A program made the position numbers and the translations under genes. The notes under the pieces are model-generated. The model had not been told where the DNA came from. It did no database searches and saw nothing but the letters and a program-made list of their open reading frames with translations. A DNA stretch of 64,000 bases from an uncultured SAR86 cluster bacterium (GTDB lineage: Bacteria > Pseudomonadota > Gammaproteobacteria > Magnimaribacterales > D2472), in the NCBI GenBank assembly GCA_902599315.1, contig CACKEY010000001.1, positions 173,328 to 237,327 on the forward strand, read 5' to 3'. Of the stretch, positions 18,499-44,563 are shown in pieces. Numbering within the stretch: position 1 is the stretch's first letter; each line of letters starts with the position of its first letter.

Positions 18499-20325
18499 AT
18501 GTGTGGAATTATAGGGGCGGCATCATCTCGCAACGTAGGAAAGTTATTAGTTCAAGGCCTTCATAAGATGGAGTATCGTGGTTATGACTCAGCAGGTATA
18601 GCCCTCCATCAAAAAGACAGTATTTTTAATTTAAGAACTTTGGGAAAAGTAAGTTTGCTTGAAGATGGAATGATTGAGCATCGGCCAAAAAGCAAACTTG
18701 GAATTGCTCACACTCGCTGGGCAACTCACGGTCAACCTTCTAAAGAAAATGCACACCCACACGCATCAAGTGGAGAGGTTCACATTGTTCACAACGGAAT
18801 TATAGAAAATTACCTTGAGCTTACAGAAAAATTAAAAAAGGCTGGATATGCTTTCCAATCTGAAACTGACTCAGAGGTCATAGCACACTTACTTCATCAA
18901 CACATACAATCAAGCGGCGATTTGCTGTCCGCTATGCATGACGCTATAAAAGAGCTTGATGGCGCTTACGCCATAGCGGCCATTCATATTAAAAATAAAA
19001 ACAGATTAGTCGTTGCAAGAAACAAAAGCCCATTATTGATTGGGCTAGGCCTAGAGGAAAATTTTGCTGCTTCGGACCCCTTAGCTTTATCACAACTTAC
19101 TAATAAGTTTGTATTTCTTGAAGATGGTGATGTTGCAGAAATAACCAAGCAAAGTTATCAAGTTTTCGACGGAAAGAGTTCCCCTGTTAAAAGAGATGTA
19201 ACTGAAATAGACATAGCAGTTAATTCGGCTACTAAAGGAGAATATTCTCACTTTATGGAGAAAGAAATATATGAACAGCCTGATGCTGTTGCCAATACCA
19301 TAAATGGGAAACTTGGAGATGAGGACGTATTAGATAATATATTTGGTTTAGGCTCATCAGAGCTTTTTAGTAAGATTAAAAGAATTCAGTTTGTTGCATG
19401 TGGAACAAGCTTACATGCAGGCAAAGTAGGAAGGTTTTGGTTTGAGCGAATAGCTAAAATTCCATGTTATGTAGATTTTGCGAGTGAGTATAGATATAGA
19501 GAGCCTCTTGTAGAAGAGGGCACATTGTTTGTTACCATTTCACAATCCGGAGAAACCGCAGATACTTTGGCTGCCCTCAAATACGCAAAAGAAAAAGACT
19601 ATTTAAGCACATTGTCAATCTGCAACGTTCCAACCAGTTCGTTGGCTAGAGAATCAGAGCATGTTCTTTTTACTAATGCTGGCCCAGAAATTGGCGTTGC
19701 ATCAACAAAGGCATTTACTACTCAGCTGGCAGGTTTGATGCTGTTAGCCATGTCTATTGCAAAAAGCTTAAATCAAGATAAAGAATTAAGAAAAAAATTG
19801 GCTAGTGAACTAAGAAATTTGCCAAAGGTGATCGATAAGACATTGAAACTATCAAATGAGATCATGAAGATCGTTCCTAATATTGCTGATAAACACAATG
19901 CTTTATTCTTAGGAAGGGGCATGTTTTTTCCAATCGTTCAAGAAGGCGCACTGAAATTGAAAGAAATTTCATACATTCACGCTGAGGCTTACCCAGCAGG
20001 AGAGTTAAAACATGGGCCACTGGCATTGGTCGACGATCAAATTCCAGTGGTGGCATTATCCCCTGAAAATACTTTAACTGAAAAACTAGTCTCCAACCTG
20101 GAGGAGGTAAAGGCAAGGGGCGGCACGCTTTATGTATTTGGTGGAGAAAATTCAAAAATTAAAATCGAAAGAGGTGAATACATTCAAATGCCAGAATGTA
20201 GCGAATTGTTAGCTCCAATTATTTATACCATTCCACTTCAAATTCTTGCATATCAAGTTGCATGCCAAAGAGGCACTGATTTAGATCAACCTAGGAACTT
20301 AGCTAAGTCAGTTACGGTGGAATGA
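18499..20325 (+). CDS. glmS: Glutamine-fructose-6-phosphate aminotransferase GlmS
   Basis: The start is set at ATG 18499 (MCGIIGA, Ntn catalytic Cys2), 1 nt after the glmU stop. The track ORF from 18421 is an upstream extension. The protein has two SIS domains and the universal C-terminus NLAKSVTVE. Confidence 0.97.
   Translation: MCGIIGAASSRNVGKLLVQGLHKMEYRGYDSAGIALHQKDSIFNLRTLGKVSLLEDGMIEHRPKSKLGIAHTRWATHGQPSKENAHPHASSGEVHIVHNGIIENYLELTEKLKKAGYAFQSETDSEVIAHLLHQHIQSSGDLLSAMHDAIKELDGAYAIAAIHIKNKNRLVVARNKSPLLIGLGLEENFAASDPLALSQLTNKFVFLEDGDVAEITKQSYQVFDGKSSPVKRDVTEIDIAVNSATKGEYSHFMEKEIYEQPDAVANTINGKLGDEDVLDNIFGLGSSELFSKIKRIQFVACGTSLHAGKVGRFWFERIAKIPCYVDFASEYRYREPLVEEGTLFVTISQSGETADTLAALKYAKEKDYLSTLSICNVPTSSLARESEHVLFTNAGPEIGVASTKAFTTQLAGLMLLAMSIAKSLNQDKELRKKLASELRNLPKVIDKTLKLSNEIMKIVPNIADKHNALFLGRGMFFPIVQEGALKLKEISYIHAEAYPAGELKHGPLALVDDQIPVVALSPENTLTEKLVSNLEEVKARGGTLYVFGGENSKIKIERGEYIQMPECSELLAPIIYTIPLQILAYQVACQRGTDLDQPRNLAKSVTVE
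20299..20325 (+). repeat. Reference copy of the repeat: the genuine last 27 nt of glmS
   Basis: TTAGCTAAGTCAGTTACGGTGGAATGA encodes L-A-K-S-V-T-V-E-stop. Confidence 0.9.
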
Positions 20326-20355
20326 GTTTGAACAGAGAATTATTAGAATAAAATT

Positions 20356-20742
20356 ATGAAAAAAATAGTTTTTTCTATATTCGCAATTCTATTCATCAAT
20401 GTTGTTAATGCAAAAACCTTGGTTCTAGAATGCAGTCAAATAACTTCAGGATTCTCTCTAAAATCAGAAGTAATAATTAATACGAACACAGGGTTTATTT
20501 CTATGCATGGTTGGATAGTAAAAGATGAATTTGCCTATTCTGAAGAAAGTGGAGAGATAGAAGCATGGGGCATCATTAAAGAGTATGGAAATGACTCTGA
20601 TTTTCGTCATATTAAATACCTTGAAAAGGAAAAAATTCTTGCCTGGTCTGACTCATTTTTTAGACCTCGAGGAGTATTCGGAGATAATCCTCCGCATAAA
20701 TATGTATCCTCAGGTAATTTCCAAATTTTGAAATGCCAATAA
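20356..20742 (+). CDS. Hypothetical secreted protein (cassette unit 1)
   Basis: 128-aa ORF with an N-terminal signal peptide (MKKIVFSIFAILFINVVNA). I recognise no family. Confidence 0.65.
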   Translation: MKKIVFSIFAILFINVVNAKTLVLECSQITSGFSLKSEVIINTNTGFISMHGWIVKDEFAYSEESGEIEAWGIIKEYGNDSDFRHIKYLEKEKILAWSDSFFRPRGVFGDNPPHKYVSSGNFQILKCQ

Positions 20743-20840
20743 AATATCTCTTTCTATTCTGCATATTTTCCATAATTTGCAGTGCAGGGAAAAGATTTTT
20801 ACCATATGAGAAACGATGGATAAAAAATCAAATCACTGTT

Positions 20841-20867
20841 TTGTTCAAGTCAGTGACGGTAGAGTAG
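20841..20867 (+). repeat. glmS 3'-end repeat, copy 1
   Basis: TTGTTCAAGTCAGTGACGGTAGAGTAG would read L-F-K-S-V-T-V-E-stop. It matches the genuine end at 18 of 27 positions by hand count. Confidence 0.75.
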
Positions 20868-20899
20868 ATTTGGAAAATGATTTATATAGGAGATACTAA

Positions 20900-21169
20900 A
20901 TGTTAATAGCAGTAAGAGCAGAAGTTGAGAGCGTTGATCACTGGAGAGAAAAATTTAAGACTCACGATGATTTATTTAAAAGTCAGGGCGTCTCTCTTGC
21001 ACATATGGGAACAGCAAATGATAAAACAGTAATTGCTGTTTTTGAAACAAACGATGTTGATAAGTTTGTAAGAATATTTAATGATCCTTTAACTGCAGAG
21101 GCAATGTCAGAGGATAAAATAACAGGCGGTGTTGAGATGTTTATTCTAGACGAGACCTTTGAATTATAA
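20900..21169 (+). CDS. Hypothetical small soluble protein (cassette unit 2)
   Basis: 89-aa ORF with an AGGAG Shine-Dalgarno 8 nt upstream. I recognise no family with confidence. Confidence 0.6.
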   Translation: MLIAVRAEVESVDHWREKFKTHDDLFKSQGVSLAHMGTANDKTVIAVFETNDVDKFVRIFNDPLTAEAMSEDKITGGVEMFILDETFEL

Positions 21170-21183
21170 AAAACAGGTTGAGT

Positions 21184-21210
21184 TTATTTCAATCAGTCAC
21201 GGTGGAGTAG
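21184..21210 (+). repeat. glmS 3'-end repeat, copy 2
   Basis: TTATTTCAATCAGTCACGGTGGAGTAG would read L-F-Q-S-V-T-V-E-stop and matches the genuine end at 19 of 27 positions. It also shares AACAGAGAAT at the same +6 offset after the stop (21216-21225 versus 20331-20340). Confidence 0.8.
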
Positions 21211-21242
21211 AACAAAACAGAGAATAAAAAGATTGAAGTAAT

Positions 21243-21521
21243 ATGAAAAAGTTTATTGGAATATTCCTGACTTCTGCATTTATATTTGCAGTTTTATTAT
21301 CTGAGTATGATAGTTATTATGGTTCTTGGTTATTTTATGCGCTGGGAATGATGATGGTTGCCCTAGGATATATTTATAAGGGTGAGGAAAATTCAACAAG
21401 TTGTTTTTGGGTTGGTTTATTCATAATGCTGATAACTTTTGTGGGCGCAAATGTTTCAGGAAAAATTTCTATCGAGACTATAGAAATCTTACGTGAGACT
21501 TTGGAAAACATAGAAGAATAG
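21243..21521 (+). CDS. Small membrane protein, paralog of 23991-24251 (cassette unit 3)
   Basis: 92 aa with about three TM helices. It aligns with the 86-aa ORF at 23991 through shared Y-x-D-x-Y, LY-x-LG, G-L-x-I-x-x-ITF-x-G and SG-x-I positions. Confidence 0.65.
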   Translation: MKKFIGIFLTSAFIFAVLLSEYDSYYGSWLFYALGMMMVALGYIYKGEENSTSCFWVGLFIMLITFVGANVSGKISIETIEILRETLENIEE

Positions 21522-21541
21522 TAAGAGTGATTTTTAAAATT

Positions 21542-22657
21542 TTAAATTACTTCCGCAAGAGAATTTAAACAATACTCAATATTCTTTTTATTGGAAGATT
21601 GTCCCATAAGTCCAATGCGCCAAACTTTTCCCGCAAGAACTCCAAGACCAGCTCCAATTTCGAGATTAAATTCGTTTAACAGTCTTTGTCTTGATTCAAG
21701 ATCATTTACACCATCAGGAATATAGATAGCATTTAATTGAGGCAATCTGTCCTCTTCTTTTACTAAAAATTCAATATTTAATTTTTCTAAGCCCTCTCGG
21801 AGTTGAAGATGGTTCTCTTTATGTCTTTTCCATGAATTTTCTAGGCCTTCTTCACTTAACATTATCAAGGCTTCATGAAGTCCATATAATGAATTTATTG
21901 GTGCAGTATGATGATAAGATCGGCCTGCTTCTCCTTCCCAATATGACATGATTAAGTTTAAATCATGAAACCAACTCTTCACTTTTGATTTTCTATTCTT
22001 AATCTTTTCTTTTGCAGCTTTACTAAAACTAATTGGCGATAAACCAGGAGAAGCGGACAAACACTTTTGTGTACCAGAATAAATTGCGTCAATTCCCCAT
22101 TCATCTACTTTTAAAGGAACTCCAGCCAAACCAGTTACAGTATCTACAATTGATAAACATCCGTGGTCATGTGCTAATTTTGTAATTGATTCTGGATCTG
22201 TAAGAGCCCCGGTAGAGGTTTCAGCATGAACTGAAGCAACAATTTTTGCATCCTTATGTTCATTTAAGGCTGATTCAATTTTATTTAAGTCTACTTTTGT
22301 TCCCCATTCATCATCAATAACTATTGGTATTCCACCAAATCGCTCAACATTCTCTTTCATTCTTTCTCCAAAGAACCCATTTTTAGCAATAATTACCTTG
22401 TCATCAGGCTCAACAAGATTCGCAAAGCAAGATTCCATACCTGCCATACCAGGTGCTGATAAGGCAAAAGTTAACTCATTCTGTGTTTGAAATGCATATT
22501 GAAGTAACTGTTTTGTTTCATCCATCATTGTTATAAAAATAGGATCAAGATGACCAATAGTTGGTCTAGCCATAGCCTCCAAAACTCTATCGCAAACGTC
22601 AGATGGACCTGGACCCATTAAAATCCTATTTGGCGGTGTGAATGAATTTATTTTCAT
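21542..22657 (-). CDS. Class V aminotransferase (alanine-glyoxylate / serine-pyruvate aminotransferase family)
   Basis: 371 aa with the N-terminal LMGPGPS motif and the PLP-lysine region SGTQKCLSASPG typical of the AGXT/SPT family. Confidence 0.85.
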   Translation of the reverse strand: MKINSFTPPNRILMGPGPSDVCDRVLEAMARPTIGHLDPIFITMMDETKQLLQYAFQTQNELTFALSAPGMAGMESCFANLVEPDDKVIIAKNGFFGERMKENVERFGGIPIVIDDEWGTKVDLNKIESALNEHKDAKIVASVHAETSTGALTDPESITKLAHDHGCLSIVDTVTGLAGVPLKVDEWGIDAIYSGTQKCLSASPGLSPISFSKAAKEKIKNRKSKVKSWFHDLNLIMSYWEGEAGRSYHHTAPINSLYGLHEALIMLSEEGLENSWKRHKENHLQLREGLEKLNIEFLVKEEDRLPQLNAIYIPDGVNDLESRQRLLNEFNLEIGAGLGVLAGKVWRIGLMGQSSNKKNIEYCLNSLAEVI

Positions 22658-22766
22658 GGCGATATGATACTAGATAAACACTTTTCTTTTGAAAAAATGG
22701 ATAGGAAAAAGTCTAAAAAAAAGTACTTAAGTATAATGGGCATAGGGTTTAATAAAGGTAGATAGT

Positions 22767-22793
22767 TTAATCTATACAGTGACGGCGGAGTAG
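22767..22793 (+). repeat. glmS 3'-end repeat, copy 3 (most decayed)
   Basis: TTAATCTATACAGTGACGGCGGAGTAG would read L-I-Y-T-V-T-A-E-stop and matches the genuine end at 16 of 27 positions. Its 17-nt core matches copies 1 and 2 at 15 of 17 positions. Confidence 0.7.
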
Positions 22794-22826
22794 AAAGATA
22801 AAATTAGCTTTTTTAGGGCTTAAATA

Positions 22827-23117
22827 ATGGAAATAAATTGGGTGATTATAGGTTGGCTAATCGACATGACTCTTAATGGTTTTGTGTGGCTTATCATTGC
22901 AGCATTTTCTTTGTTAATAATTGATGTGACTGACAAATGGACAAGAAAAGCTGTTAAGTTGATGGGTAAAGCTGATGATTGGATAAGAAAATTTATAGAA
23001 GACGACTTATTTGAATTTATTCAAAAGAAGAACCTTAAAATGCTTACTAGCATTATTTTGTTAATTATCTTTGGTATTCTGGCTCAACTAGGAATAATAC
23101 CGAAGCTTATAACTTAA
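22827..23117 (+). CDS. Hypothetical membrane protein
   Basis: 96-aa ORF with two hydrophobic helices. It starts 33 nt after repeat copy 3. Confidence 0.55.
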   Translation: MEINWVIIGWLIDMTLNGFVWLIIAAFSLLIIDVTDKWTRKAVKLMGKADDWIRKFIEDDLFEFIQKKNLKMLTSIILLIIFGILAQLGIIPKLIT

Positions 23118-23277
23118 TATATTAAGATAATGAAAGTAATTTCAAATTTAATCCGTTAGCGGGCGATAAACTTAGTAAAAAAACACGGATTACTTTTAAA
23201 ATAAAATTAAATCACCATATAAATTCTATAGTTGCAAAGTTGTTTCGTTTGCAGAATAAATTTTAGGAGTATCAAAT

Positions 23278-23964
23278 ATGGTTTTAGCAGCCGGTGCACT
23301 CATAGTTCTAGCACTAATATTCGGGCCATCTTTATGGGTGAAGCTGGTTATGAAGAGGTATTCAACTGTAAAGCCTGAAATGCCAGGCACTGGGGGAGAA
23401 CTTGCAAAGCATTTGATTGAGCGATTTTCTTTAAAAGATGTGACGGTCGAAGTAACTGAGCTGGGAGATCATTATGATCCAATTGAAAAAAAAGTTAGGC
23501 TTTTGCGAGAGCACTATGAATCCAAATCGTTAACAGCAATTGCAATTGCCGCACATGAGGTTGGACATGCCATTCAGGATCAGCAAGGTGACAAACGTCT
23601 GGCTACTAGAACAAAGATGGTACCCATTATTGATAAGGTAGCCCGTTGGAGTGCTTTAATTATCTCTTTATCGCCAGTGATCGGTATTATTACGCGGCAT
23701 CCAATGCCATTTTCTTTATTGCTTATCGTTGGGCTATCCGGATTTATCGCTCGCATGATGGTTCATGCGGTGACTCTGCCAATTGAATTTGATGCAAGTT
23801 TTTCCAAGGCTCTTCCTATATTAAGGGAGGGGAATTACGTATCGCAGTCAAACGAAAGAGCCGTTAGCAGCATTCTGAGGGCAGCGGCTCTTACTTATGT
23901 TTCGGCTGCGCTTGCCGACATTTTAAACCTTGGTCGTTGGATCGTTATTCTATCTAGGCGATGA
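23278..23964 (+). CDS. Putative neutral zinc metallopeptidase (YugP-like, Zn_peptidase_2 family)
   Basis: 228 aa with the HExxH motif (AAHEVGHAIQ), an N-terminal TM helix and C-terminal TM helices, as in this family. A GGAG Shine-Dalgarno lies upstream. Confidence 0.75.
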   Translation: MVLAAGALIVLALIFGPSLWVKLVMKRYSTVKPEMPGTGGELAKHLIERFSLKDVTVEVTELGDHYDPIEKKVRLLREHYESKSLTAIAIAAHEVGHAIQDQQGDKRLATRTKMVPIIDKVARWSALIISLSPVIGIITRHPMPFSLLLIVGLSGFIARMMVHAVTLPIEFDASFSKALPILREGNYVSQSNERAVSSILRAAALTYVSAALADILNLGRWIVILSRR

Positions 23965-27825: not shown

Positions 27826-29307
27826 CTATGCTTTTTTAGTTGCAATAATATTTTTAACTATAGAAATCATCAGCAATAGATATACAAACAATAACGGAAC
27901 TGAGAATATAACCATTATCCACTTAAATGAATCAACTCCCCCAAGAAACATCAAGAGGGTAGGTTGAATAACAAGTAAGATCGCAAATATCAACCTTAAA
28001 TTACCTGAGCTCTCAATATTTGATCTTTTCATAGATGCTGAAGCTAGAATGTATGAGGTAGAGTCATAGGTTGTACATAAAAAGATAATACAAATTATTC
28101 CAAAACCAATTAAAAGAAAGTTACTAAAACTCAATGTCGATAAAGTTTTAATTATTATTTGCTCTCTATTTAGAATCCCGTCTTCTAATAGCTTGGGCGA
28201 ATTCAAAAGCTCTGATTCAAATAGATAGATTGATAAATTTGATAATACAGACATGCTTATCATGCAACCAACGCTGCCAATAAATATTACTCCTAGAATA
28301 ATAGATCTCAATGATTTGCCATTAGATATGTTAACAATGAAGGCGCCGACCATTGGGGCTAATGCCATCCACCAAGCCCAATAAAAAACCGACCAATCTT
28401 TACTGATTGCTGTACCAGTTGTGAAACTGAATTCAGGATATTGCTTAAATAAGAACAAGTAACTCTCGATTGATTTAGAAAAAATATATTGCGTTGGCCC
28501 TAGAATAAAAACCAAGACCAAAAATAATAAAACTAAAATAATATTAAAGTTACTTAGCCTCTTTATTCCTTTTTGAATTCCAAGATATGCACTGGTTGCA
28601 AATATTGACAGACAAACAGCTATCGTAAAAATATCCAGATTAAAAGTTTTTTCAATATTGAAGACATTTGATAAGATCGAAGAAATTAAAGGGAAGGACA
28701 AGCCAAGTCCAACTCCTGCTCCACAAAGTATCGCTCCAATGAACAATGAATCAAATAAAACCTCCAAGAATTTATTTTTGATATTAAATATTCCTGAAAA
28801 TGTTAATTTAGATTTTTGATTGTTTGTGATTGCCAACCCAAACGCAATTGCAGGCAAGCAATATATAGCCCAAGCAGTAAATGACCAATGAAAAATAGGA
28901 TAAGTTCTTGAATACAACAACGCGGTATCAATATCTAAGCTCTGGGATCTTAATATATTAAAATAATCTATCCATTCAATTGTTGCCCAGTACAAAAGAG
29001 CTGCGCCAATACCCGCGGCAAAGAGCATTGAACCCCATGAAAAAAATGAATGTGTTTCCTTATTCTGTAAAGAAATTTTTATATCACCATATTTTGATAG
29101 CGCAATAAAGATTAGAAAAATTAATACCGAAAAACTTCCATACATATAGGTTGGTTCAAAAATGATTGTCAAAGAGTCATATAATTTGAAAAGTAGCTTT
29201 GAACTTCCAACAGGATCAGACAACACATATATTGATAAGAGCAAAGATAGTACAATCGAAAGTGAGATAATAGTTTTATTCCATTCTGCACTTATTTTTA
29301 TAAACAT
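27826..29307 (-). CDS. BCCT family (betaine/carnitine/choline-type) transporter
   Basis: 493 aa, polytopic, with BCCT signatures (SWGSMLFAAGIGAALLYW and the Trp-rich VFYWAWWMALAPMVGAFI). Confidence 0.88.
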   Translation of the reverse strand: MFIKISAEWNKTIISLSIVLSLLLSIYVLSDPVGSSKLLFKLYDSLTIIFEPTYMYGSFSVLIFLIFIALSKYGDIKISLQNKETHSFFSWGSMLFAAGIGAALLYWATIEWIDYFNILRSQSLDIDTALLYSRTYPIFHWSFTAWAIYCLPAIAFGLAITNNQKSKLTFSGIFNIKNKFLEVLFDSLFIGAILCGAGVGLGLSFPLISSILSNVFNIEKTFNLDIFTIAVCLSIFATSAYLGIQKGIKRLSNFNIILVLLFLVLVFILGPTQYIFSKSIESYLFLFKQYPEFSFTTGTAISKDWSVFYWAWWMALAPMVGAFIVNISNGKSLRSIILGVIFIGSVGCMISMSVLSNLSIYLFESELLNSPKLLEDGILNREQIIIKTLSTLSFSNFLLIGFGIICIIFLCTTYDSTSYILASASMKRSNIESSGNLRLIFAILLVIQPTLLMFLGGVDSFKWIMVIFSVPLLFVYLLLMISIVKNIIATKKA

Positions 29308-31281
29308 ATGTCAGAGAATACCAACCTTAAGATTGCATTAGATAACGCTAGTGATTTATTTAACAATAATAATTTAAATGAATGTATAGAACAACTTGAA
29401 GAAATTTTAAATATCCATCCTTCAAACCTTAAAGCCTTGTCTTTGCTTTTAGATATCAATATAAAATTAAATAGGGCTGAGAAAGCTTTAAAAATTATCA
29501 AAAAACTAATTCAACTTGAACCTGATAGTAAGGAGCACCATGAAAAATTAGTAAAAGTTCATCAATTTCTTAATGACAACAGAGCATACGAGTCTGCATT
29601 AATTGATTTTCATAAAAAATTTCCATCCATTACAACCGCTCGTTTAATTTCAAATATTCATATTGAAAATGATAGGGAAGAGGAATCTGATCAAGTTATT
29701 CAGAGCTTCTTTGAGTCAGATAAAAAATACGGCGATTTATATAAGGGAATTAGACACGTCAAAGCAGGTAGATTAAAGCTTGCTGAAGATGCATATAAAC
29801 GAGTTCTTAAAAAAGATAAGAATAATATAGATGCTTTAAGGTTATTAGGGCTGCTTGCATTTAAAACAAAAGATTATGAGGTATCTGAGAGACTTTTTTT
29901 AAGAGTCCTTGAATTAGATCCAACTTTTTCATTAGCTTGGGATAACCTTGCAAAACTTTATAGGATTCAAAATAAACTTTCAAAGTCTGTCCCAGCATTT
30001 AAGAATCTCATTCAGTTGGATCCAAATAATTTTGAAGCATTGGTATCTTTAGGAACTGTTTATATTAAGTTATCTCAATATCAAGAAGGTATTAAATTAT
30101 ACGAAAAGTCATTAAAAATTAATCCTGAAAATCCTCGAGTCTTTCTCAGTCTTGGCCACGCATTGAAAACAGTTGGAGAGAGAAAAAGATGTGAGGATGC
30201 ATATCAAAATGCAATAAAGTATTTTCCATTATCTGGTGAGGCATATTGGAGCTTAGCAAATCTAAAGACTTATGAATTCTCAGATAAAGAAATTATTAAC
30301 ATGGAGTCATCTCTTAACAGAAACATACATCCAAAAGAGCTAATTCAGATGCACTTTGCACTCGGAAAAGCCTATGAGTCAAAAAAACATTTTGATAAAT
30401 CATTTAAACATTATGCTCAAGGGAATTGGCAACAAAGAAAGCAGCTAAGTTATAACGCCGAAGACTATAAAATTTCTATCGATAGCTTAATAGATTTTTT
30501 TGAAAGCAATCGTGATCTTTACAACTTAAAAGCTAAATCAAGTTTTGAAGATCCAATTTTTATTTTGGGTTTACCTAGATCAGGATCAACAATGATCGAA
30601 CAGATCCTTGCATCTCATTCTTTAATAGAGGGCACACAAGAATTACCAAATATTTTGGCCATTTCTAGAGATATAAAGTTAATTGATCAAGAAAATGGGT
30701 ATCCAGATAACTTATTAGTACTTGACCAATCTTCATTTGAAGAGCTAGGAGAAAAATACATTGATGAAACAAAATGGGCCAGATCTTCTAAACCATTTTT
30801 TATTGATAAAATGCCAAACAATTTTGTCCACATAGGACTTATAAAATTAATTTTACCCAAGGCTAAGATAATAGATGCAAGAAGAAATCCAATGGACGCT
30901 TGTTTTAGCTGCTTTAAACAGTATTTTGCTAAAGGCCAACATTTTACTTATGACCTAGATGATATTGCTAGATATTACAAAGACTATATTAGGCTAATGG
31001 ATTATTGGAAAAAGCTTTTTCCAGGTGAAATTTTTACAATCAATTATGAGGATGTTATCAAAAATCCTAATGAAAGAATTGCAGATCTATTAGAATTTTG
31101 TAACGTGAAGTTCGAAGAGAATTGTTTAAATTTTCATAAATCAAAACGGCCAGTAAAAACTGCAAGTTCTGAACAAGTCAGGCAGCCAATGTATAAGACC
31201 GGTTTAGATTATTGGATGAATTATGCAGATCATCTAGAAATTTTGACGAAACATTTTTGCGAGGGCGAAAAAAAAATCTAA
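29308..31281 (+). CDS. TPR-repeat protein with a C-terminal sulfotransferase domain
   Basis: 657 aa with N-terminal TPR repeats. The C-terminal domain carries the PAPS 5'-phosphosulfate-binding loop GLPRSGSTM. Confidence 0.85.
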   Translation: MSENTNLKIALDNASDLFNNNNLNECIEQLEEILNIHPSNLKALSLLLDINIKLNRAEKALKIIKKLIQLEPDSKEHHEKLVKVHQFLNDNRAYESALIDFHKKFPSITTARLISNIHIENDREEESDQVIQSFFESDKKYGDLYKGIRHVKAGRLKLAEDAYKRVLKKDKNNIDALRLLGLLAFKTKDYEVSERLFLRVLELDPTFSLAWDNLAKLYRIQNKLSKSVPAFKNLIQLDPNNFEALVSLGTVYIKLSQYQEGIKLYEKSLKINPENPRVFLSLGHALKTVGERKRCEDAYQNAIKYFPLSGEAYWSLANLKTYEFSDKEIINMESSLNRNIHPKELIQMHFALGKAYESKKHFDKSFKHYAQGNWQQRKQLSYNAEDYKISIDSLIDFFESNRDLYNLKAKSSFEDPIFILGLPRSGSTMIEQILASHSLIEGTQELPNILAISRDIKLIDQENGYPDNLLVLDQSSFEELGEKYIDETKWARSSKPFFIDKMPNNFVHIGLIKLILPKAKIIDARRNPMDACFSCFKQYFAKGQHFTYDLDDIARYYKDYIRLMDYWKKLFPGEIFTINYEDVIKNPNERIADLLEFCNVKFEENCLNFHKSKRPVKTASSEQVRQPMYKTGLDYWMNYADHLEILTKHFCEGEKKI

Positions 31282-31361
31282 ACAATTATTTTTTTAAGAT
31301 CAAATTCTTTAAATTTTTGATAAAATTAAAAATATATATCATGAGAAGGATTTATTTCCTC

Positions 31362-31389
31362 TCCAACCTGCCTACTCCGGCAAGGTGGA
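31362..31389 (+). promoter_or_regulatory. Stable imperfect hairpin in the leader of the homocysteine methyltransferase gene
   Basis: TCCAACCTGCC-TACTCC-GGCAAGGTGGA forms 10 bp with two single-nucleotide bulges. Its 5' arm (CTCCA) is also complementary to the TGGAG of the downstream Shine-Dalgarno at 31416-31420. It is not followed by a U-run. Confidence 0.3.
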
Positions 31390-31426
31390 AAAAAGATATG
31401 GCGTTCAGCAAATAATGGAGGTGTGA

Positions 31427-32377
31427 ATGTCTTTAAAAACGAAAATTAAAAAACCATTAATACTTGATTCAGCCTTGGGTACCGAGCTTGAAAATCGTGG
31501 CGAATACCTCCCAAGTTTTAAAACTTCTATTTGGTCAGCACATTGCTTAATACATAAGCCAGAAGTTATTAAACAAATACATGTTGATAACATTGAAGCT
31601 GGAGCTGATGTAATTACCACATCAAATTATCAGGCTACTCCAGAATTACTAATTAGAGATCCAAAGGCTCCCTCATATGAAGATCTTGCAAAAAAATCAC
31701 TTGAATTATGTAAAGAAGCTGTTGTTGAAACTGGAGCAAATACCAAGATCGCTGGTTGCTTTCCACCAATTCACATAACCTTTAGGCCTGATTTAAGTGC
31801 AAAGGAAAAAAAATTGAAAAAGTTTTATGCAACCCTAGGCGAAATTTACAAAGATGATGTTGATTTAATTATTTGTGAAACAATGGCATCAATTTATGAG
31901 GGTATTATTGCAGCATCAACTGCTAAAAATTTTACAGACCAAGTCTGGTTAAGTTGGACAACAAGGGGAAATAAACTTAACAGACTCCCAAGTACAGAGT
32001 TATTAGATCTTGCAATTGATGAAGGGTTAAAATTAAATGTTGATTGTCAACTGGTAAATTGTGTTCATGCAGATACTGCTAGCATGGCAATTGAAAAACT
32101 TAAAAAAGAAAAAAGTTTTGGTATATATGCAAACTCCTCTATATATAAAAAAAATAAGTTAGAGGGTTTTGTTACTGACTCTGACGAATGGCATTATCAC
32201 AATCATCAACATATCAATCATTTAGAGTATAGAGAGTTTGTTTCTGAATGGATTACTAAAGGAGCCTCAGTGATAGGCGGTTGTTGCAGAACAACAACTT
32301 CTCACATAAAAGAAATTAGGAAAATTGTTGATGCACTAGACTTTAAATTTAAAAATGTAAACGCTAAAAAATTCTAG
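31427..32377 (+). CDS. Homocysteine S-methyltransferase family protein (MmuM/BHMT-like)
   Basis: 316 aa with the motifs GADVITTSNYQAT and zinc-ligand GGCCRTT. Confidence 0.88.
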   Translation: MSLKTKIKKPLILDSALGTELENRGEYLPSFKTSIWSAHCLIHKPEVIKQIHVDNIEAGADVITTSNYQATPELLIRDPKAPSYEDLAKKSLELCKEAVVETGANTKIAGCFPPIHITFRPDLSAKEKKLKKFYATLGEIYKDDVDLIICETMASIYEGIIAASTAKNFTDQVWLSWTTRGNKLNRLPSTELLDLAIDEGLKLNVDCQLVNCVHADTASMAIEKLKKEKSFGIYANSSIYKKNKLEGFVTDSDEWHYHNHQHINHLEYREFVSEWITKGASVIGGCCRTTTSHIKEIRKIVDALDFKFKNVNAKKF

Positions 32378-32808
32378 TTATTTCTAGTTCTAATTTTTGC
32401 GCACTCCACAACATCGCAGTAGGTTTTTTCCCATCTTTCAAAAGTTTGATAATCCCCAAAATCAATATTTATTTTGAATGAGTTTTTATCGCCCATAAAG
32501 TTTGGTTTAAAGGAGATTACTTCGCCTTCAAGCGATTCAGTACTACTTTCTATAATCGTTTCGGTTACTTTCCCATCTTTAATAACATATCTGCCCTTAT
32601 TAAAGTTCATTTTATTTTCTAAATAAAAAATAATTACAAATTCTCCATTCATGTACATCTTAATCGGAGTAGGGTTTGGCACATCTTGATATTTTTCATC
32701 TACTGCATATTCAACCAGCCTCCAGGTTCCCATTAAGTCACCCTTAATAGCACTATGCCCATAAGAAAAAGAAGAAAAAATAAAAAGTAGTAGTAATATA
32801 TTTTTCAT
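32374..32808 (-). CDS. Hypothetical secreted protein
   Basis: 144 aa with a signal peptide (MKNILLLLFIFSSFSYG). It is convergent with the previous gene, and the two stops share CTAG at 32374-32377. Confidence 0.6.
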   Translation of the reverse strand: MKNILLLLFIFSSFSYGHSAIKGDLMGTWRLVEYAVDEKYQDVPNPTPIKMYMNGEFVIIFYLENKMNFNKGRYVIKDGKVTETIIESSTESLEGEVISFKPNFMGDKNSFKINIDFGDYQTFERWEKTYCDVVECAKIRTRNN

Positions 32809-32847
32809 AACGAATAACTCAATTTAATATTTATTTAAAAAGTAAGT

Positions 32848-33951
32848 TCATCTTAACTTTGTAATACTAAATATTTCATTTTTAAATTGGATTTCTTTTG
32901 ATTTATCTATGACTCTCCTTATCTTTTTTTGAAGCATTGTATTATTTTCCAATGCTTGAATATCTTTTTCTGCTATTTGACCAACATATAACATATTTGC
33001 CCATTTAGCATCTGTGTTATGGCCGAATAATTCCGTAACTGTTTTATCCGGCGCTCGTTTAAATGTGAAATAATAATTTTGAGGTTTAGAAAACTTATAA
33101 ATATTATTTTCTCCAAATGGGTTATCTTTTAAATGTTCAATGATATCTTTTGCTTTATTTGGAAAAGCTTCTTTATCTTTAAACGCTAACTTTAAGACCT
33201 TTTGAACAGAGTCTCCTCCAACTGAGTGAGTTATTAAAAGCTTTCCTGATTTATTCAATAACCTCATCAAGGGCCCAATAACATTTTTTACTTTTACGTT
33301 TACAGATGATGCCGCTCTGTATGCCTGGGATGCTAGTATCAAATCATAGTTATTGTTTTTGTAATTATTTTTCAAAAACTTCTTTAGATGTTTTTCATTG
33401 TCTTCTCTATAAACTCGGATAATGCACGGAGACGAGTATGCAGTTCGATCTTTTTTATCAATTTCTATTCCCCAATTTTTTTTAATAAAATTTCCTAAAA
33501 GATTTCCAGTTATTTGAGAATTAAAGTCAAACGAGTTGTTACTTTTAAGGACTAAATTAAATTCTTTAATTTTCTTATCTTTAATTTTATTTGAATTCTC
33601 AATTAATCCTAGTTCAGCAAATTTTACATTAGTCATCGTTATTAATAGATTTGGGTGCTCAACAAATCTATCTGGCATTTTCTCAAGTGTATTTTTTAAG
33701 TCTTCATAACTGATTTCTTTTCCAGTAATTAATAGGGAAGAGTATGGATGATATTTATGAAAGCTTTTAATAATATTAGAGAAGATTGTTCCGTCACCTG
33801 TCCCAGCATCTAAAATTCTTAAATATGATTTGTTATCAGATAAGCTTGCAATATGTGAATAAACTTTTTCAGAAATTGCTTTTTTCTCTCCTGTATTTTG
33901 AATAAACGATAAATACTTTAATCGATCATCAAAGAATCTTTTTTTGCCCAT
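32848..33951 (-). CDS. Hypothetical protein with a SAM-methyltransferase-like motif I
   Basis: 367 aa. ILDAGTGDGT resembles motif I of the class I methyltransferase fold. The rest is unrecognised and Lys/Asn-rich. Confidence 0.45.
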   Translation of the reverse strand: MGKKRFFDDRLKYLSFIQNTGEKKAISEKVYSHIASLSDNKSYLRILDAGTGDGTIFSNIIKSFHKYHPYSSLLITGKEISYEDLKNTLEKMPDRFVEHPNLLITMTNVKFAELGLIENSNKIKDKKIKEFNLVLKSNNSFDFNSQITGNLLGNFIKKNWGIEIDKKDRTAYSSPCIIRVYREDNEKHLKKFLKNNYKNNNYDLILASQAYRAASSVNVKVKNVIGPLMRLLNKSGKLLITHSVGGDSVQKVLKLAFKDKEAFPNKAKDIIEHLKDNPFGENNIYKFSKPQNYYFTFKRAPDKTVTELFGHNTDAKWANMLYVGQIAEKDIQALENNTMLQKKIRRVIDKSKEIQFKNEIFSITKLR

Positions 33952-34021
33952 TTTTTACTTTTTATGATGTTAAATTAATAATAATCTAAAATATCAGCAT
34001 AAGTAACCTTATAGAGGAATT

Positions 34022-40869: not shown

Positions 40870-42131
40870 TGAAAAATATAACCTTATTTGTAATAACAAC
40901 CTCTTTATTGAGCTTTTCCCTTTCTTCAACTGTCAATGAAGCAACCATTCATTCTGAAAAAATTATTCTTGGATCAGGTTGTTTTTGGGGAGCTGAAAAA
41001 GGTTATGAAGCATTACCAGGAGTAATAGACGCAGTTTCTGGATATGCTGATGGAAATGGTATTCGTCCGACCTATAGAGAAATTACAAAGTTAAAAAATA
41101 AGTTTAATGTTAATAACCATGCTGAAGTAGTTGAGGTTACATACAACAAGAATATTATTTCAACAGAAAAACTTTTAATGCATTTTTTTGAATCTCATGA
41201 TCCAACTCAAATAAATAGACAAGGTAATGACATAGGAACCCAATATAGATCTATTATTTTGTACAGCAATGAAGAACAAAAGAGGATCATTGAAAGCGTA
41301 GTTCAAACCTTTCAAACACTCTTATCAAATGAAGGATATGGGGTTATCGCTACCTCAGTTAAGCCAATTGAAAAATTTTATATGGCCGAAAACTATCATC
41401 AGGATTACATTGCAAAAAATCCAAATGGATATTGCCCCGATCACTCTACAGGAGTTAAGTTTGCCAAAACTAATGAGCCATCTTTAATAGATAATTCTGA
41501 ACTATTAAAAGAAAAAAAAATAATAGTTATTGAAGCAGAAGGATTTTGTCCCTATTGTGAAAAATTTAACGTAAATGTTGTAAATAATTATGATGGTGAT
41601 ATTCCAGTTATTTTTAGATTTGCACACCAATTAGAGGGCCTTGAAATTGATTCTCCTACATGGGCCACTCCAACTATTTTATTCTTAGAAAATGGCAAAG
41701 AGGTTTTTGCTCATCAAGGATATTTAAATCCAAAGGAATTTTATCAGGCCCTTGGTTACTTTAAATTGGGAGATTCAGAGGCTTACCGAGTTGCATTTGA
41801 AAAAGGGACAGATGCAAGATTTTGCAAAGAATATGAGATATTCAAGGATACGCCTGATGGAATTTTCGTAGATAAGCTAAGCGGAGCACCATTATTTGAT
41901 ACAAAAGATAGATTTAATTCTTCCACAGGCTGGCTTTCTTTTACTAAACCTATTGAAGGATCTGTTTATTCTATGCCTGACAATAGTTATGGGATGAGAA
42001 GAACTGAAATTAGATCAGTGACTTCTGATATACACCTTGGCCATGTTTTTTCTGACGGACCAAATGGTATGCCAAGATATTGCATCAATGCTACTGTTCT
42101 TGAATTCAAACAAAGATCATCAGAAACTTAA
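40869..42131 (+). CDS. msrAB: Periplasmic methionine sulfoxide reductase fusion: MsrA, a CPYC thioredoxin/glutaredoxin-like domain, and MsrB
   Basis: 420 aa with a signal peptide. The MsrA motif is GSGCFWGAEKGY, the central segment is GFCPYCEKF, and the MsrB motifs are GWLSF and HLGHVFSDGP...RYCIN. Confidence 0.88.
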   Translation: MKNITLFVITTSLLSFSLSSTVNEATIHSEKIILGSGCFWGAEKGYEALPGVIDAVSGYADGNGIRPTYREITKLKNKFNVNNHAEVVEVTYNKNIISTEKLLMHFFESHDPTQINRQGNDIGTQYRSIILYSNEEQKRIIESVVQTFQTLLSNEGYGVIATSVKPIEKFYMAENYHQDYIAKNPNGYCPDHSTGVKFAKTNEPSLIDNSELLKEKKIIVIEAEGFCPYCEKFNVNVVNNYDGDIPVIFRFAHQLEGLEIDSPTWATPTILFLENGKEVFAHQGYLNPKEFYQALGYFKLGDSEAYRVAFEKGTDARFCKEYEIFKDTPDGIFVDKLSGAPLFDTKDRFNSSTGWLSFTKPIEGSVYSMPDNSYGMRRTEIRSVTSDIHLGHVFSDGPNGMPRYCINATVLEFKQRSSET

Positions 42132-42197
42132 TAAAACCCCTTTTTTAATTAACATCTGCTTTCATCAAATCAATTTATAGGTATAAACTATCATGTA

Positions 42198-42470
42198 ATG
42201 AATATATCTATTCTTTTGGTCCTGATATCGGCCGCACTCCTTTTTTTAGGCCACTTTACCTTAGCGTTAATTTTTTTTATATCAGCAGTTTTATTCTTTC
42301 TTATTGTTTTTGTTTTCGGGAGATTTTTTGATCATTTATATTGGGAAAACAAAAATAACACAATAAATAATGAAAGTGATTTAGATCATACTGATAATAA
42401 ACTTTCTCAGTTCCTATATGAGCAATATCTAAAAGGGGTTTATTGGAACGATAAACGAAAAAACAGATGA
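42198..42470 (+). CDS. Hypothetical small membrane protein
   Basis: 90 aa with two N-terminal TM helices. It overlaps the next gene by 4 nt. Confidence 0.5.
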   Translation: MNISILLVLISAALLFLGHFTLALIFFISAVLFFLIVFVFGRFFDHLYWENKNNTINNESDLDHTDNKLSQFLYEQYLKGVYWNDKRKNR

Positions 42471-43495
42471 TATTATCCATCACCCTTGATCGTAAAAAGG
42501 GTGGAATAGCAAACAGTTTAATCTCTTATTCTAAAGCGCTTGATTTAATTGGAGAAAAACATTTTATCATTTTGCCCAACGATGCCGCTGTGAAAGATGA
42601 CTTATTAAATTTACCAAATGTTCAAATTTTTTCTATTAAAAAATCTTTACTTTACTTTCATCTTTTAACCAAATTTATTTTTAAGCGAGACTATAAAAAT
42701 CATATTGAAGATTCTAAGTGGATATTTATTCATAACTCAAAGTTGATTAATTTTTTTAATCAATATAGTTTTAAACTCGGAATGATCAATCATTCTGGCA
42801 AGCTTCGAAATACCCTTCATAGGGCTTTTAATATATTTTTAACTCACTCGGGATATGAAAGATTTATTTCTCACTATCCTGATAATGAATCCACTAATCT
42901 CGTTATTCCACATGGATTTAAACAATTGCAGGAAGCTTTAAGCTTAAAAAAAAATAAAGTCCTAAAAGTAATTTCTGCAGGTAGATTTGTAACTAAAAAA
43001 GGTTTTAATGACTTAATAAAAGCAGCTGAAAAACTGCAAAAAGACAATTTTCCAGTACAAATAGAACTTTTTGGCTCTGGGCCACTAGAAGCGGAGTTAA
43101 GAAAAAAAATAAATGACCTGGCTTTAAAAAATATCCGATTGATTGGATGGACTGAAGATTTGCATAATGAATTTAGAAAAGCAGATGTTTTTTGTATAAC
43201 CTCTTTAGAGGAACCATTTGGTTTAATTATTGGAGAAGCAATGATGAGCGGATTGCCCGTTATTTCCACTCAAACTGACGGAGCCATGGAAATTTTTGGG
43301 ACAGAGCCAGAGAAAAAGGGCGCAATCTATGTAGATTTTTCTTCTCCTGATGAAATAAAAAATGCAATTCAAGCTCTTAGCAACGATGAAAAAAGACTTT
43401 TACTTGCTCAAAACGCACATGACAACATCAATACGAATTTTAGTTTGGAAAGATTATCGAGGAAATTGAAGGATTTATTTGAATATGCAGATTAA
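42467..43495 (+). CDS. Glycosyltransferase family 4 (GT-B, GT1-clan)
   Basis: 342 aa with the E-x7-E region EEPFGLIIGEAMMSGLPVIST. Confidence 0.85.
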   Translation: MILSITLDRKKGGIANSLISYSKALDLIGEKHFIILPNDAAVKDDLLNLPNVQIFSIKKSLLYFHLLTKFIFKRDYKNHIEDSKWIFIHNSKLINFFNQYSFKLGMINHSGKLRNTLHRAFNIFLTHSGYERFISHYPDNESTNLVIPHGFKQLQEALSLKKNKVLKVISAGRFVTKKGFNDLIKAAEKLQKDNFPVQIELFGSGPLEAELRKKINDLALKNIRLIGWTEDLHNEFRKADVFCITSLEEPFGLIIGEAMMSGLPVISTQTDGAMEIFGTEPEKKGAIYVDFSSPDEIKNAIQALSNDEKRLLLAQNAHDNINTNFSLERLSRKLKDLFEYAD

Positions 43496-44510
43496 CGTTG
43501 GCCATCTTACCGAAGGTATTTCTGGGCACGATGGCCAGGCTTTAGGGGTTATAAAAAATTTAGTTGATTCCGGTTATAACATAAATGTAACAACTATCTC
43601 TGTTGGATGGAGCATTAGGCTTACGAGGGGAATTTTAAAATTCATATCAAGAAAATTATCAAGATTTCCAAATCCAATTAATATAAATTTAATAACCAAG
43701 TGTTATGCATTTTCATCCTTTAGAAATATAGATATTTTTATATCTTCTGGTGCAAATCTTGCTCCTTTAAATTTGGCACTTACAAAACAAAACAATGCAA
43801 AAAATATTCACTTAAGCTCAAAACGAGACTGGCATATCCAAGACTTTACGGCATACATAACAACAAAAAAAATTTCACCTTTAAAAAATAATCTAAGCCC
43901 AGATATTGTGCCAAATTTATTTGATCCCGCTAAGTGCAGGCAGGCAGGACAGACTTTCATTAAAGAAAATAATTTAAATGAGGATAAGTTTTCATTATTG
44001 ATACTGGGAGGAAATGGAATTGGATATGAATATGATATGAATGAATGGGAGGAAATCTTAAGGAATTTTTCTGACTTCTGCACAAACAGTAATACAAAAC
44101 CTCTTTTCATTACCTCACCGAGGACACCTACTGAAGTTGAAAATATCATTCAATCAAAATATGACACCTCTTTTTCAGTCCTATTTCATTCTGAAAATAA
44201 AAGAGGCAGTTTTTCTCATCTTTTGTACATAGCATCTAATATATTTGTCACTGAAGATAGCTCAACAATGTTATCAGAAGCTATTTCTTCAGGAAAAAGA
44301 GTAGTATCTATATATCCTCAAAATATTCATGCCCCAGAAAAATATTCAGAAATTATACGAAAGTATGAAGCGCTTAATTTTGTTACAAGAAGGAATATCA
44401 CTGGAATTTGTGATGGCCCTTTTAATGAAATGATAGATATTTCTTTTGAAGTAAATCAAGCATTTGTTGAATTTAATAAATTATTAATTGAGTTATTGTT
44501 TGACCGGTAA
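43479..44510 (+). CDS. ELM1/DUF1022-family putative glycosyltransferase
   Basis: 343 aa. The N-terminal LTEGISGHDGQALGV resembles the ELM1-family d-G-k-x-G-x-x-x-Q-x-x-G motif. It overlaps the GT4 gene by 17 nt. Confidence 0.5.
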   Translation: MNMQINVGHLTEGISGHDGQALGVIKNLVDSGYNINVTTISVGWSIRLTRGILKFISRKLSRFPNPININLITKCYAFSSFRNIDIFISSGANLAPLNLALTKQNNAKNIHLSSKRDWHIQDFTAYITTKKISPLKNNLSPDIVPNLFDPAKCRQAGQTFIKENNLNEDKFSLLILGGNGIGYEYDMNEWEEILRNFSDFCTNSNTKPLFITSPRTPTEVENIIQSKYDTSFSVLFHSENKRGSFSHLLYIASNIFVTEDSSTMLSEAISSGKRVVSIYPQNIHAPEKYSEIIRKYEALNFVTRRNITGICDGPFNEMIDISFEVNQAFVEFNKLLIELLFDR

Positions 44511-44563
44511 ACAATCTTTTTATTAAATTTAACTCCTTGCATTTTGATATACTGATAAAACAA

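Follow-up and report, generated by a model that had tools for sequence, protein, structure and literature searches.

In staphylococci, the elements of the staphylococcal cassette chromosome (SCC) are moved by large serine recombinases (LSRs) of the Ccr type, which integrate a circle into the 3' end of the housekeeping gene rlmH (orfX) and regenerate that end in the process. Direct repeats of the target end bound the inserted units, tandem composite arrays are formed, and these arrays include units that lack a recombinase and are presumably mobilized in trans. A comparable arrangement is described here behind glmS, the gene for glutamine-fructose-6-phosphate aminotransferase, in 64,000 nucleotides from an uncultured SAR86 cluster bacterium (GenBank assembly GCA_902599315.1, contig CACKEY010000001.1, positions 173,328 to 237,327 of the forward strand; this whole stretch is called the window below). 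Three displaced copies of the glmS 3' terminus follow the live gene end in the window, and a survey of related loci leads us to regard the glmS 3' end as probably the fixed attachment site of an LSR family carried on small episomes with a replication (Rep) gene and, in SAR86, as the head of an array of small cassettes. The initial annotation of this DNA had likened the copies to tandem SCC elements at rlmH, which prove to be the closest mechanistic analogue.

The two systems nevertheless differ in several respects. Every locus examined has the glmS 3' end as target, not rlmH, and by the NCBIfam cut-offs the recombinase is not a Ccr: the SAR86 enzyme is most similar to CcrB, at 80.8 bits against a cut-off of 900, with CcrA at 60.3 bits (700) and CcrC at 45.2 bits (900). 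Hosts of the glmS system are marine and freshwater bacteria, and those identified are Gammaproteobacteria (SAR86, metagenome-assembled genomes labelled Porticoccaceae, and Pseudidiomarina). Its helper is a Rep-bearing episome of 5.5-10 kb, and its very diverse units, tiny at a median of 689 bp and one gene, each carry a dyad-symmetric site of their own whose arms are lineage-specific.

Integrons offer a second comparison. In both systems a fixed capture site heads the array, the cassettes are mostly single open reading frames (ORFs) in one orientation, the cassette sites are imperfect palindromes that vary in sequence while keeping their symmetry, and the same cassettes are encountered in different positions and hosts; in glmS arrays, units that carry an LSR always occupy the proximal site. 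SAR86 arrays consist, as integron arrays do, of mostly single-ORF, co-oriented, individually mobile cassettes. However, the enzyme is a serine and not a tyrosine recombinase and is not encoded beside the array, cassettes are captured at the end of an essential gene, and the crossover falls at AC, with no GTTRRRY core and no R''-L''/L'-R' structure of the attC kind. Neither a sign of single-stranded substrates nor a dedicated cassette promoter was seen in the glmS arrays. No intI adjoins the array head, upstream of which lie atpC, glmU and glmS, and a motif screen for tyrosine recombinases, based on an unvalidated regular expression, found none in 81 loci.

The ecological parallel is a third group, which comprises the tycheposon islands of Prochlorococcus and those additive islands in which tRNA 3' ends are repeated (bioRxiv 10.1101/2020.12.28.424599; PMC10872708). 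They too belong to streamlined bacteria of oceanic or fresh waters, grow by site-specific integrations that strike the same gene end in series and leave recurring partial copies of it, and are built of elements that pair an integrase with replication genes, but the targets are tRNA or tmRNA genes, the enzymes are mostly tyrosine recombinases and the units measure kilobases to tens of kilobases. A minority of the catalogued integrative elements, tycheposons and cryptic elements together, use LSRs, and the text of the tycheposon preprint makes no mention of glmS or SAR86 (bioRxiv 10.1101/2020.12.28.424599). A literature search, outside which most subscription journals lay, returned no account of an LSR integrating at the glmS end, nor of the cassette array described here. 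The system is best classed as a site-specific additive island of the SCC type, whose integron-like traits would be new for a serine recombinase if mobilization in trans is confirmed.

Displaced copies of the glmS end

The glmS gene of the window (18499-20325, plus strand) encodes 608 amino acids and lies downstream of the atp operon (ending in atpC) and glmU. Its product is 98% identical to that of the SAR86 single-amplified genome AG-337-O06 (locus L001; loci are numbered in this way below) and 63-92% identical to those of 79 other SAR86 loci, and Pfam GATase_6/7 and SIS domains are found on the glmS orthologues. The live end at 20299-20325 encodes LAKSVTVE-stop. The coordinates and sequences that the initial annotation gave for three further copies proved exact, and read in the glmS frame these are VLFKSVTVE-stop (20841-20867), SLFQSVTVE-stop (21184-21210) and SLIYTVTAE-stop (22767-22793), so that the reading sense is kept and differences from the live end are largely synonymous. 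Identities to the live end of 18, 19 and 16 of 27 positions were reproduced, as were the sharing of AACAGAGAAT at +6 past the stop by the live end and the second copy, and the unit lengths of 542, 343 and 1583 bp; among themselves the displaced copies are identical at 20-21 of 27 positions. The repeat had been put at about 45 nt, a figure which has to be replaced by a functional repeat of about 54 bp.

That such similarity was unlikely to be chance, as had been argued, is borne out within the window. The motif CAGTNACGGNNGAGTAG with at most two mismatches has three matches in 64 kb against 0.08 expected, a number reached in none of 100 shuffles, and a codon-degenerate version of the pattern has four matches against 0.26 expected, namely the live end and the three copies only. 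Apart from a weak minus-strand match at 49275, no further copy was present in the window, and no Rfam match was obtained between 18 and 26 kb (E up to 0.1). Chance similarity and a regulatory motif were both considered and are excluded by the shuffles and by the restriction of the motif to the region downstream of glmS.

This restriction emerged from a survey of glmS with 10-kb flanks in 80 other SAR86 species genomes. Scanning at the peptide level for ends of the ...SVTVE-stop type gave 126 displaced ends, all but two on the glmS strand and none upstream of glmS. On the strand of glmS, a position weight matrix (PWM) built from the last 20 nt recovered 191 displaced sites across 654 kb of downstream sequence from the 80 loci, and none in 851 kb upstream of the gene. 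Of 60 SAR86 loci with more than 5 kb of downstream sequence, 51 carry one to nine sites, all within about 7 kb, and the arrays end ahead of a conserved gene for a 96-aa membrane protein and a Zn-peptidase gene. A motif recurring upstream of many unrelated genes would have indicated a regulatory role; it is instead confined to one strand downstream of glmS in these 51 of 60 loci.

Four PWM sites lie on the strand opposite to glmS. Good sites on that strand include one 227 nt after glmS (L043:12054), one in L008 (L008:12913) and, in both L007 and L008, one at the same place about 6.1 kb upstream of glmS (L007/L008:5695). These could be inverted cassettes or chance matches within genes. Pairs of sites only 24 nt apart, forming 'empty' units, occur at L018:12106/12130, L026:13631/13655 and L070:11851; in these the right arm AACAGTGAC followed by NGNGGAGTAG forms a second pseudo-site, and they may reflect secondary crossovers inside the arm. 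In L024 (12062-12094), a displaced copy 267 nt past the live end keeps the longer peptide RNLAKSVTVE-stop, a larger duplication than at other sites.

Site anatomy and point of exchange

The site extends over about 54 bp, with a 16-nt outer arm, a 10-nt inner segment, the dinucleotide AC, a second 10-nt inner segment and a second 16-nt outer arm. Its core derives from glmS and reads TCNGTNAC followed by NGTNGARTAR. To locate the exchange, sites sharing one flank but not the other were compared at their wobble positions (numbered back from the stop). Position -12 is linked to the upstream unit (0.67 versus a baseline of 0.27), -9 is not (0.29), and -3 is linked to the downstream unit (0.90 versus 0.53), with weaker linkage at -6 and -9. 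Six contigs that encode an identical LSR protein (P0039) are constant in sequence through ...CCGTTAC and diverge from -9 onward, one of them (L090) showing the junction to the element's own left end; the exchange is therefore placed at or next to the invariant AC (-11/-10). The exchange position in the attP/attL/attR triad of this element agrees with the linkage analysis, and the crossover lies in the interval -12 to -9.

The outer arms reveal which ends belong together. The 16 nt after a site (+1 to +16) were compared with positions -37 to -22 before the next site, that is, the two arms of one cassette. They are reverse complements of one another at a mean of 9.5 of 16 positions, and at 13 or more in 71 of 188 cassettes. 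Arms that flank the same site match at 6.25 of 16, close to the 6.16 of random pairs (Mann-Whitney p = 3e-13 versus same-cassette arms). The complementarity thus joins the two ends of the same cassette, and the dyad axis of cassette and element ends is the invariant AC at -11/-10. A circularized cassette would accordingly be predicted to carry a dyad-symmetric site of about 54 bp, the right inner half of which is the ...V-E-stop of glmS.

The last codons of glmS are the left half of the chromosomal attachment site. On the other side, a presumably native flank, AGAAAGATTTCTCGGTTGGTC, stands directly after a site in L018, L023, L027, L028, L040 and L059, in some arrays internally rather than last. 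It mirrors the glmS codons DQPRNLA (-42 to -22) at 13-17 of 21 positions versus 8.2 in controls, a comparison of six sites only, and on this small sample the empty chromosomal target looks dyad-symmetric too.

In the window, the live, attL-type site occupies 20288-20341 on the plus strand (PWM score 27), with the predicted crossover AC at 20314-20315. Its left half is glmS coding sequence and its right half, GGTGGAATGA plus gtttgAACAGAGAAtt, comes from the first cassette, from about -9 onward. All three displaced sites lie on the same strand and match the motif exactly. The first (20830-20883; AC 20856-20857; stop ending at 20867) scores 29.4; the second (21173-21226; AC 21199-21200; stop ending at 21210) has the top score of the window, 32.5, and is followed by the right arm aacaaAACAGAGAAta. 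The third (22756-22809; AC 22782-22783; stop ending at 22793) scores 20.3 and is the most degenerate copy and the last recognizable site of the array.

Exchange of cassettes between species

The sites delimit 192 cassettes with a median length of 689 bp, 111 of which hold just one ORF (minimum 50 aa). Of the cassette ORFs, 235 share the orientation of glmS and 41 do not (85% co-oriented). The 276 cassette ORFs fall into 179 protein clusters, 135 of them singletons, and recurrent families sit at differing positions in the arrays. Pfam content includes HNH and GIY-YIG nucleases, DNA methylases, Mrr, a type III restriction-modification pair, HIT, DUF805, sulfotransferases and others; many cassette proteins are of unknown function, and some look secreted or membrane-bound.

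BLAST segments common to the arrays of different species have their starts between -22 and -11 and their ends between -1 and +3, counted from the stop, and therefore terminate at the conserved core. When the same cassette was compared between species (91 pairs), its median identity was 97.1% and that of the adjacent glmS genes 72.6%, and in 64 of the 91 pairs both neighbours differed. Single cassettes have thus moved horizontally between species in recent times and were not inherited vertically. The initial annotation had proposed looking among relatives for polymorphism broken exactly at the repeats, and this is what they display: the window and L001 differ by such units, as do the empty L073 and the three-cassette L075, in which the same native flank follows straight after the core.

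Several recurrent features of the cargo may be recorded. A two-gene cassette of 1.5 kb encoding proteins of 249 and 232 aa with weak sulfotransferase matches (L005:12777-14327) occurs in nine species (L005, L014, L020, L026, L049, L051, L067, L068 and L069), where it is about 98% identical at a glmS identity of about 65%. In L005, L014, L020 and L026, the examples inspected, a conserved leader, gggagttgacgtctgtttaagcacattcacattgtt, opens the cassette; no Rfam match to this leader was obtained in L005 and L014 at the gathering score. A hairpin, ttttaaCCCCGCattctGCGGGGtttc, recurs right after the site in cassettes with minus-strand ORFs (for example after L014:12960, L020:13312 and L002:4007), and by its position is probably the terminator of a reverse-oriented gene of the Exo_endo_phos family. 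Cargo of the defence type is frequent in units behind glmS, including a type III restriction-modification pair, a NACHT/STAND NTPase, a C5 DNA methylase, Mrr, and HNH and GIY-YIG nucleases (L062:13172-18069; L092/L093:6634-8586; L081:5380-6990; cassette set A1). In L092 and L093 a heavy-metal resistance block lies upstream of the LSR.

Large serine recombinases integrated at glmS

A motif screen for tyrosine and serine recombinases across all loci gave one match, a 551-aa LSR in L050 (16176-17831) with Resolvase (6e-24), Recombinase (1e-11) and Zn_ribbon_recom (2.8e-4) domains. Its relatives in the Protein Data Bank are the SPbeta SprA/YokA, TP901-1 and PhiC31 integrases, and the serine motif YTRVSTxxQ and the invariant cysteines C285, C288, C310 and C332 are kept in 23 homologues, so this enzyme is a genuine LSR. 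Its gene stands at the far end of a 6-kb first unit, with its stop 43 nt before a displaced site, and the same unit encodes a rolling-circle-type Rep, albeit with a marginal match (PF23343, 28.7 bits versus a cut-off of 27.8).

Homologues of this LSR are common in marine metagenomes. Relatives drawn from metagenomes and IMG/VR are 30-73% identical and come from AT-rich and GC-rich, marine and freshwater sequences. Where at least 120 nt follow the gene, 51 of 63 have a glmS-end site within 250 nt after it. The element, 5.5-10 kb in these relatives, has the gene order Rep, orf66, orf67, orf83r, orf130r, orf212r, orf245, ..., LSR. In L050, L081 and L085 it lies directly after glmS, its LSR gene ending 43-60 nt short of a displaced site; further integrated forms are L101, L127, L131, L155 and L174, and in L084, whose contig ends just upstream of the LSR gene with glmS out of view, a site again follows the LSR. 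In nine loci with glmS visible no site intervenes between glmS and the LSR unit, even where further cassettes come after it. The suggestion that larger islands at glmS in relatives might still carry a recombinase has therefore been borne out, and it is in these relatives only that the combination of resolvase, recombinase and zinc-ribbon domains typical of LSR elements was found. The att sites, imperfectly dyad-symmetric around a non-palindromic dinucleotide, also conform to this class, in which such sites are short (about 40-55 bp).

Other contigs carry the element without glmS. L113 and L121 read LSR, attP with complementary arms (16 of 16 in L113), Rep, orf66 and orf67, while L104 and L090 are briefer circularly permuted contigs. 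All four join the end of the element to its own start, the junction that the initial annotation had suggested seeking in metagenomic reads, and present the arrangement expected of an excised, episomal form or of tandem copies. Both states known of LSR elements, a circular attP form and an integrated form flanked by hybrid sites, are thus represented, with tandem copies a possible alternative to circles.

Arms agree at 15.4 of 16 positions between LSRs of 90% identity or more, and at 5.3 of 16 between LSRs less than 50% identical, which do not share them. Among the 192 cassettes, 37 have a left arm within 4 mismatches in 16 of the arm of a sampled LSR element, representing 11 lineages. The accessory ORFs orf66, orf67, orf83r, orf130r, orf212r, orf245 and orf75 had no Pfam or NCBIfam match, and PHROGs supplied only a family of unknown function for orf130r; a directionality factor could therefore not be named. 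PLSDB plasmids and INPHARED phages contained no relative of the LSR above about 30% identity. A filamentous phage was considered for the element and rejected, there being no ORF of Zot-like size in that of L085 and no match to a capsid or coat family.

Two variants lie outside SAR86. In an LSR subfamily of 33-35% identity (L152, L153, L158, L160, L161 and L173), the LSR gene converges on glmS, and the recombinase is therefore glmS-proximal, not distal, in the element. In Pseudidiomarina taiwanensis (L091, PIQG01000004.1, 10001-13600), a 37%-identical LSR stands beside a type I restriction-modification system and is followed by a remnant resembling the glmS end (ACAGTGGAATAA) and then by a Tn7-like end with repeated GGAATAAAGTNGNTGAC motifs and genes for TnsA and TnsB. 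Two different glmS-targeting mobile elements are stacked in this locus.

Proposed mechanism and alternative explanations

In the mechanism that we propose, LSRs would be carried on episomes of about 5.5-10 kb with a rolling-circle-type Rep gene, and a free cassette would be a circle with a dyad-symmetric attP of about 54 bp, the right inner half of which mimics the last three glmS codons and the stop. Such a circle would insert by recombination at the invariant AC within the threonine codon of ...S-V-T-V-E-stop; all sites would point one way because this dinucleotide is non-palindromic. The newcomer would supply a new ...V-E-stop and a new glmS 3' flank, and the old end, pushed downstream, would become a displaced copy. 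Insertion at the glmS-proximal site and excision between neighbouring sites would build and shuffle the array, and an LSR that stays in the cell only for a time would act in trans on the cassettes that lack a recombinase. The sites, their confinement to one side of glmS and one orientation, the cassette boundaries at the core and the crossover interval are shown by the data, as are the complementary cassette ends, the recent transfer of single cassettes between species, the LSR elements integrated at glmS and the circularly permuted LSR-attP-Rep contigs. From these we infer that the small cassettes, too, are substrates of the LSR, that this enzyme would accept a hybrid glmS-P' site as target, that cassettes may exist as free circles and that excision may occur between hybrid sites. 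The original reading of integration scars at the glmS 3' end forming a cassette-like array is accordingly supported, each of the four checks suggested with it having turned out favourably, and service by a recombinase in trans is probable. The dyad symmetry of the cassette ends, the crossover at AC and the nature of the enzyme go beyond that reading.

A number of observations weigh against this mechanism. An LSR lies within 10 kb of glmS in only one of the 80 SAR86 species loci, and none was found in the 64-kb window by an LSR profile search of six-frame ORFs, in agreement with the initial annotation, which had seen no integrase there; the argument for action in trans is therefore one of association. 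The largest arm class, AAATCACTGTTCAAA (about 89 sites by single linkage), matches no LSR sampled. Canonical LSRs are not known to recombine attP with attL-type hybrids, or hybrids with one another, without a directionality factor, and the model therefore needs a permissive enzyme or an accessory factor; CcrAB has been reported to be permissive. It is also hard to reconcile that LSR lineages with unrelated outer arms target the same glmS left half. The circle junctions could equally be tandem copies, that of L090 showing only 16 nt past the junction, and no terminal overlaps were found in the metagenomic contigs, none of which is closed. The arms of the second and third units of the window are at the random level (5-6 of 16), and the co-orientation of cassette ORFs is ambiguous, as it may partly be a leading-strand bias; cumulative GC skew rises over the whole window.

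The rival that we take most seriously, though we think it unlikely, holds that the small units are fossils of complete LSR elements, with recombinase and backbone since deleted and no mobilization in trans. In its favour, LSR elements are found integrated at glmS with repeats of just this kind, complementarity would persist between the two ends of an element after such a deletion, the distal cassettes of the window have eroded arms, and LSR genes are rare in the arrays. Fossils would not, however, be expected to recur as the same LSR-less cassettes with identical boundaries, about 97% identical across species whose glmS is about 73% identical and with different neighbours on both sides, as the sulfotransferase cassette does in its nine species; nor are there Rep or LSR backbone remnants in any cassette, and cassette lengths cluster at one gene. 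We give very little weight to the idea that no dedicated recombinase is involved and that the pattern results from homologous recombination or gene conversion through microhomology of the core, or from a regulatory or terminator motif. Whole-array replacement could be anchored by glmS on the left and the MEINW membrane-protein and Zn-peptidase genes on the right, but the core is only about 18-20 nt long, such a process gives no reason why ends of the same cassette and not of the same site should be complementary, the motif is restricted to the DNA behind glmS, its copies preserve the frame and stop of that gene with synonymous differences, and Rfam gave no matches in the window (18-26 kb), L005 or L014.

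An integron-like system, in which a tyrosine recombinase would act on folded single-stranded hairpins whose arms are recognized by structure as in attC, appears just as improbable. Arm sequences do vary widely while their complementarity is kept, the cassettes are single-ORF and co-oriented, and a rolling-circle Rep on the helper element makes single-stranded DNA intermediates plausible; yet the genes upstream are the atp operon, glmU and glmS, not intI, the crossover is at AC within GTNAC/NGT and not at G/TT of a GTTRRRY core, and LSRs, in many lineages, are the only recombinases with a physical link to the sites. The 80 loci and the window gave no match to a tyrosine recombinase motif, in a screen whose regular expression could be checked against no known Xer or Int gene among the sequences. 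Hardest of all to credit is a Tn7 origin, with the copies as decoys for TnsD binding or remnants of Tn7-like insertions at attTn7. The landmark is the same, glmS being the classical Tn7 attachment locus with its conserved C-terminal coding sequence as recognition element, and in the Pseudidiomarina locus an element with TnsA and TnsB genes lies directly after a displaced glmS end. Tn7, however, transposes by TnsABC+D to about 25 bp downstream of the glmS stop, making 5-bp duplications and leaving the gene end unduplicated, whereas the units here are bounded by copies of that end. The 2.5-kb region behind glmS in the window holds small cassette ORFs and one aminotransferase, with no room for tns genes, and none were seen there (Tn7 end repeats and 5-bp duplications were not specifically searched); the initial conclusion that Tn7 is not involved is upheld on both grounds. 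The Pseudidiomarina insertion, the only true Tn7-like element seen, is a separate neighbour of the LSR element.

Beyond attachment at glmS itself, a wider proposition follows the mechanism set out above: that SAR86, and perhaps other streamlined aquatic bacteria, possess a serine-recombinase analogue of the integron, in which the glmS stop serves as a permanent capture site, a pool of single-gene cassettes circulates between species on palindrome-like sites of about 54 bp with co-varying arms, and the recombinase visits on a small rolling-circle episome. We consider the evidence for and against this proposition evenly balanced. SAR86 bacteria are among the most abundant uncultured heterotrophs of the surface ocean, with streamlined genomes and a largely unknown route of gene exchange, and the locus offers them a concrete and testable one, a single hot spot behind an essential gene at which a diverse pool of single genes is inserted and exchanged between species. 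If the integron analogy is true, this would be a principal route of gene flow in a very abundant surface-ocean heterotroph. The loci also add a large, uncharacterized LSR clade with a defined and highly conserved natural target, the glmS end, which is present in most bacteria and could be useful as a landing site in genome engineering. They raise mechanistic questions, namely how an LSR would use hybrid sites and how unrelated outer arms could work on one target half. For annotation, short ORFs ending in ...SVTVE-stop downstream of glmS should be regarded as site relics and not genes.

Cassettes of the window and the right border of the array

The window contains three, probably four, LSR-less cassettes, the distal ones eroded and probably fixed. 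Cassette 1 (542 bp, 20316-20857, plus strand) has one co-oriented ORF of 128 aa (20356-20742) without a Pfam family, which begins MKKIVFSIFAILFINVVNA, by eye a likely signal peptide. Its ends, of the common arm class TCACTGTT / AACAGNGA, are complementary at 9 of 16 positions, and around its 3' site it matches cassette ends in L032, L042, L045 and L048 at 84-89% identity; the cassette is absent from L001. The 44-aa ORF at 20733-20867, which ends in ...KSVTVE-stop, is one of the site relics just mentioned. Cassette 2 (343 bp, 20858-21200, plus strand) likewise has one co-oriented ORF (89 aa, 20900-21169) without a significant Pfam family; it is 86% identical in nucleotide sequence to L032:14790-15072, which has a decayed site before it. 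The outer arms of cassette 2 are eroded to 5 of 16 complementary positions, the random level.

The third unit (1583 bp, 21201-22783) comprises a 92-aa ORF and a class-V aminotransferase gene and has outer arms likewise eroded to the random level (6 of 16). Although its length as one of three delimited units is as first described, it is probably two fused cassettes. The first part, 3a, has the 92-aa membrane-like ORF (21243-21521, plus strand) and is specific to the window. The second, 3b, has the aminotransferase (21542-22657, minus strand; Aminotran_5, E = 1.5e-25), which is also found in L001, L006, L008 and L011, and looks like the older cassette. No recognizable site is left between 3a and 3b; in L011 the aminotransferase unit begins directly after a strong site, and homology between the window and L001, lost at the glmS end, resumes at 21533 in the aminotransferase unit (95.6%).

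The array is bordered on the right by the MEINW gene for a 96-aa membrane protein (22827-23117, plus strand), which stands after the last site in many SAR86 loci, and by a Zn_peptidase_2 gene (23278-23964, plus strand; E = 2.2e-61). Between these two genes, AATCCGTTAGCGGGCGATAA at 23151-23170 is by eye a possible decayed site, matching the consensus at 14 of 20 positions, which alone is not significant. Farther downstream in the window, the G+C content falls to 0.28-0.33 at 28000-34000 and 42000-45000, against about 0.36-0.40 elsewhere, and these segments may represent another flexible region.

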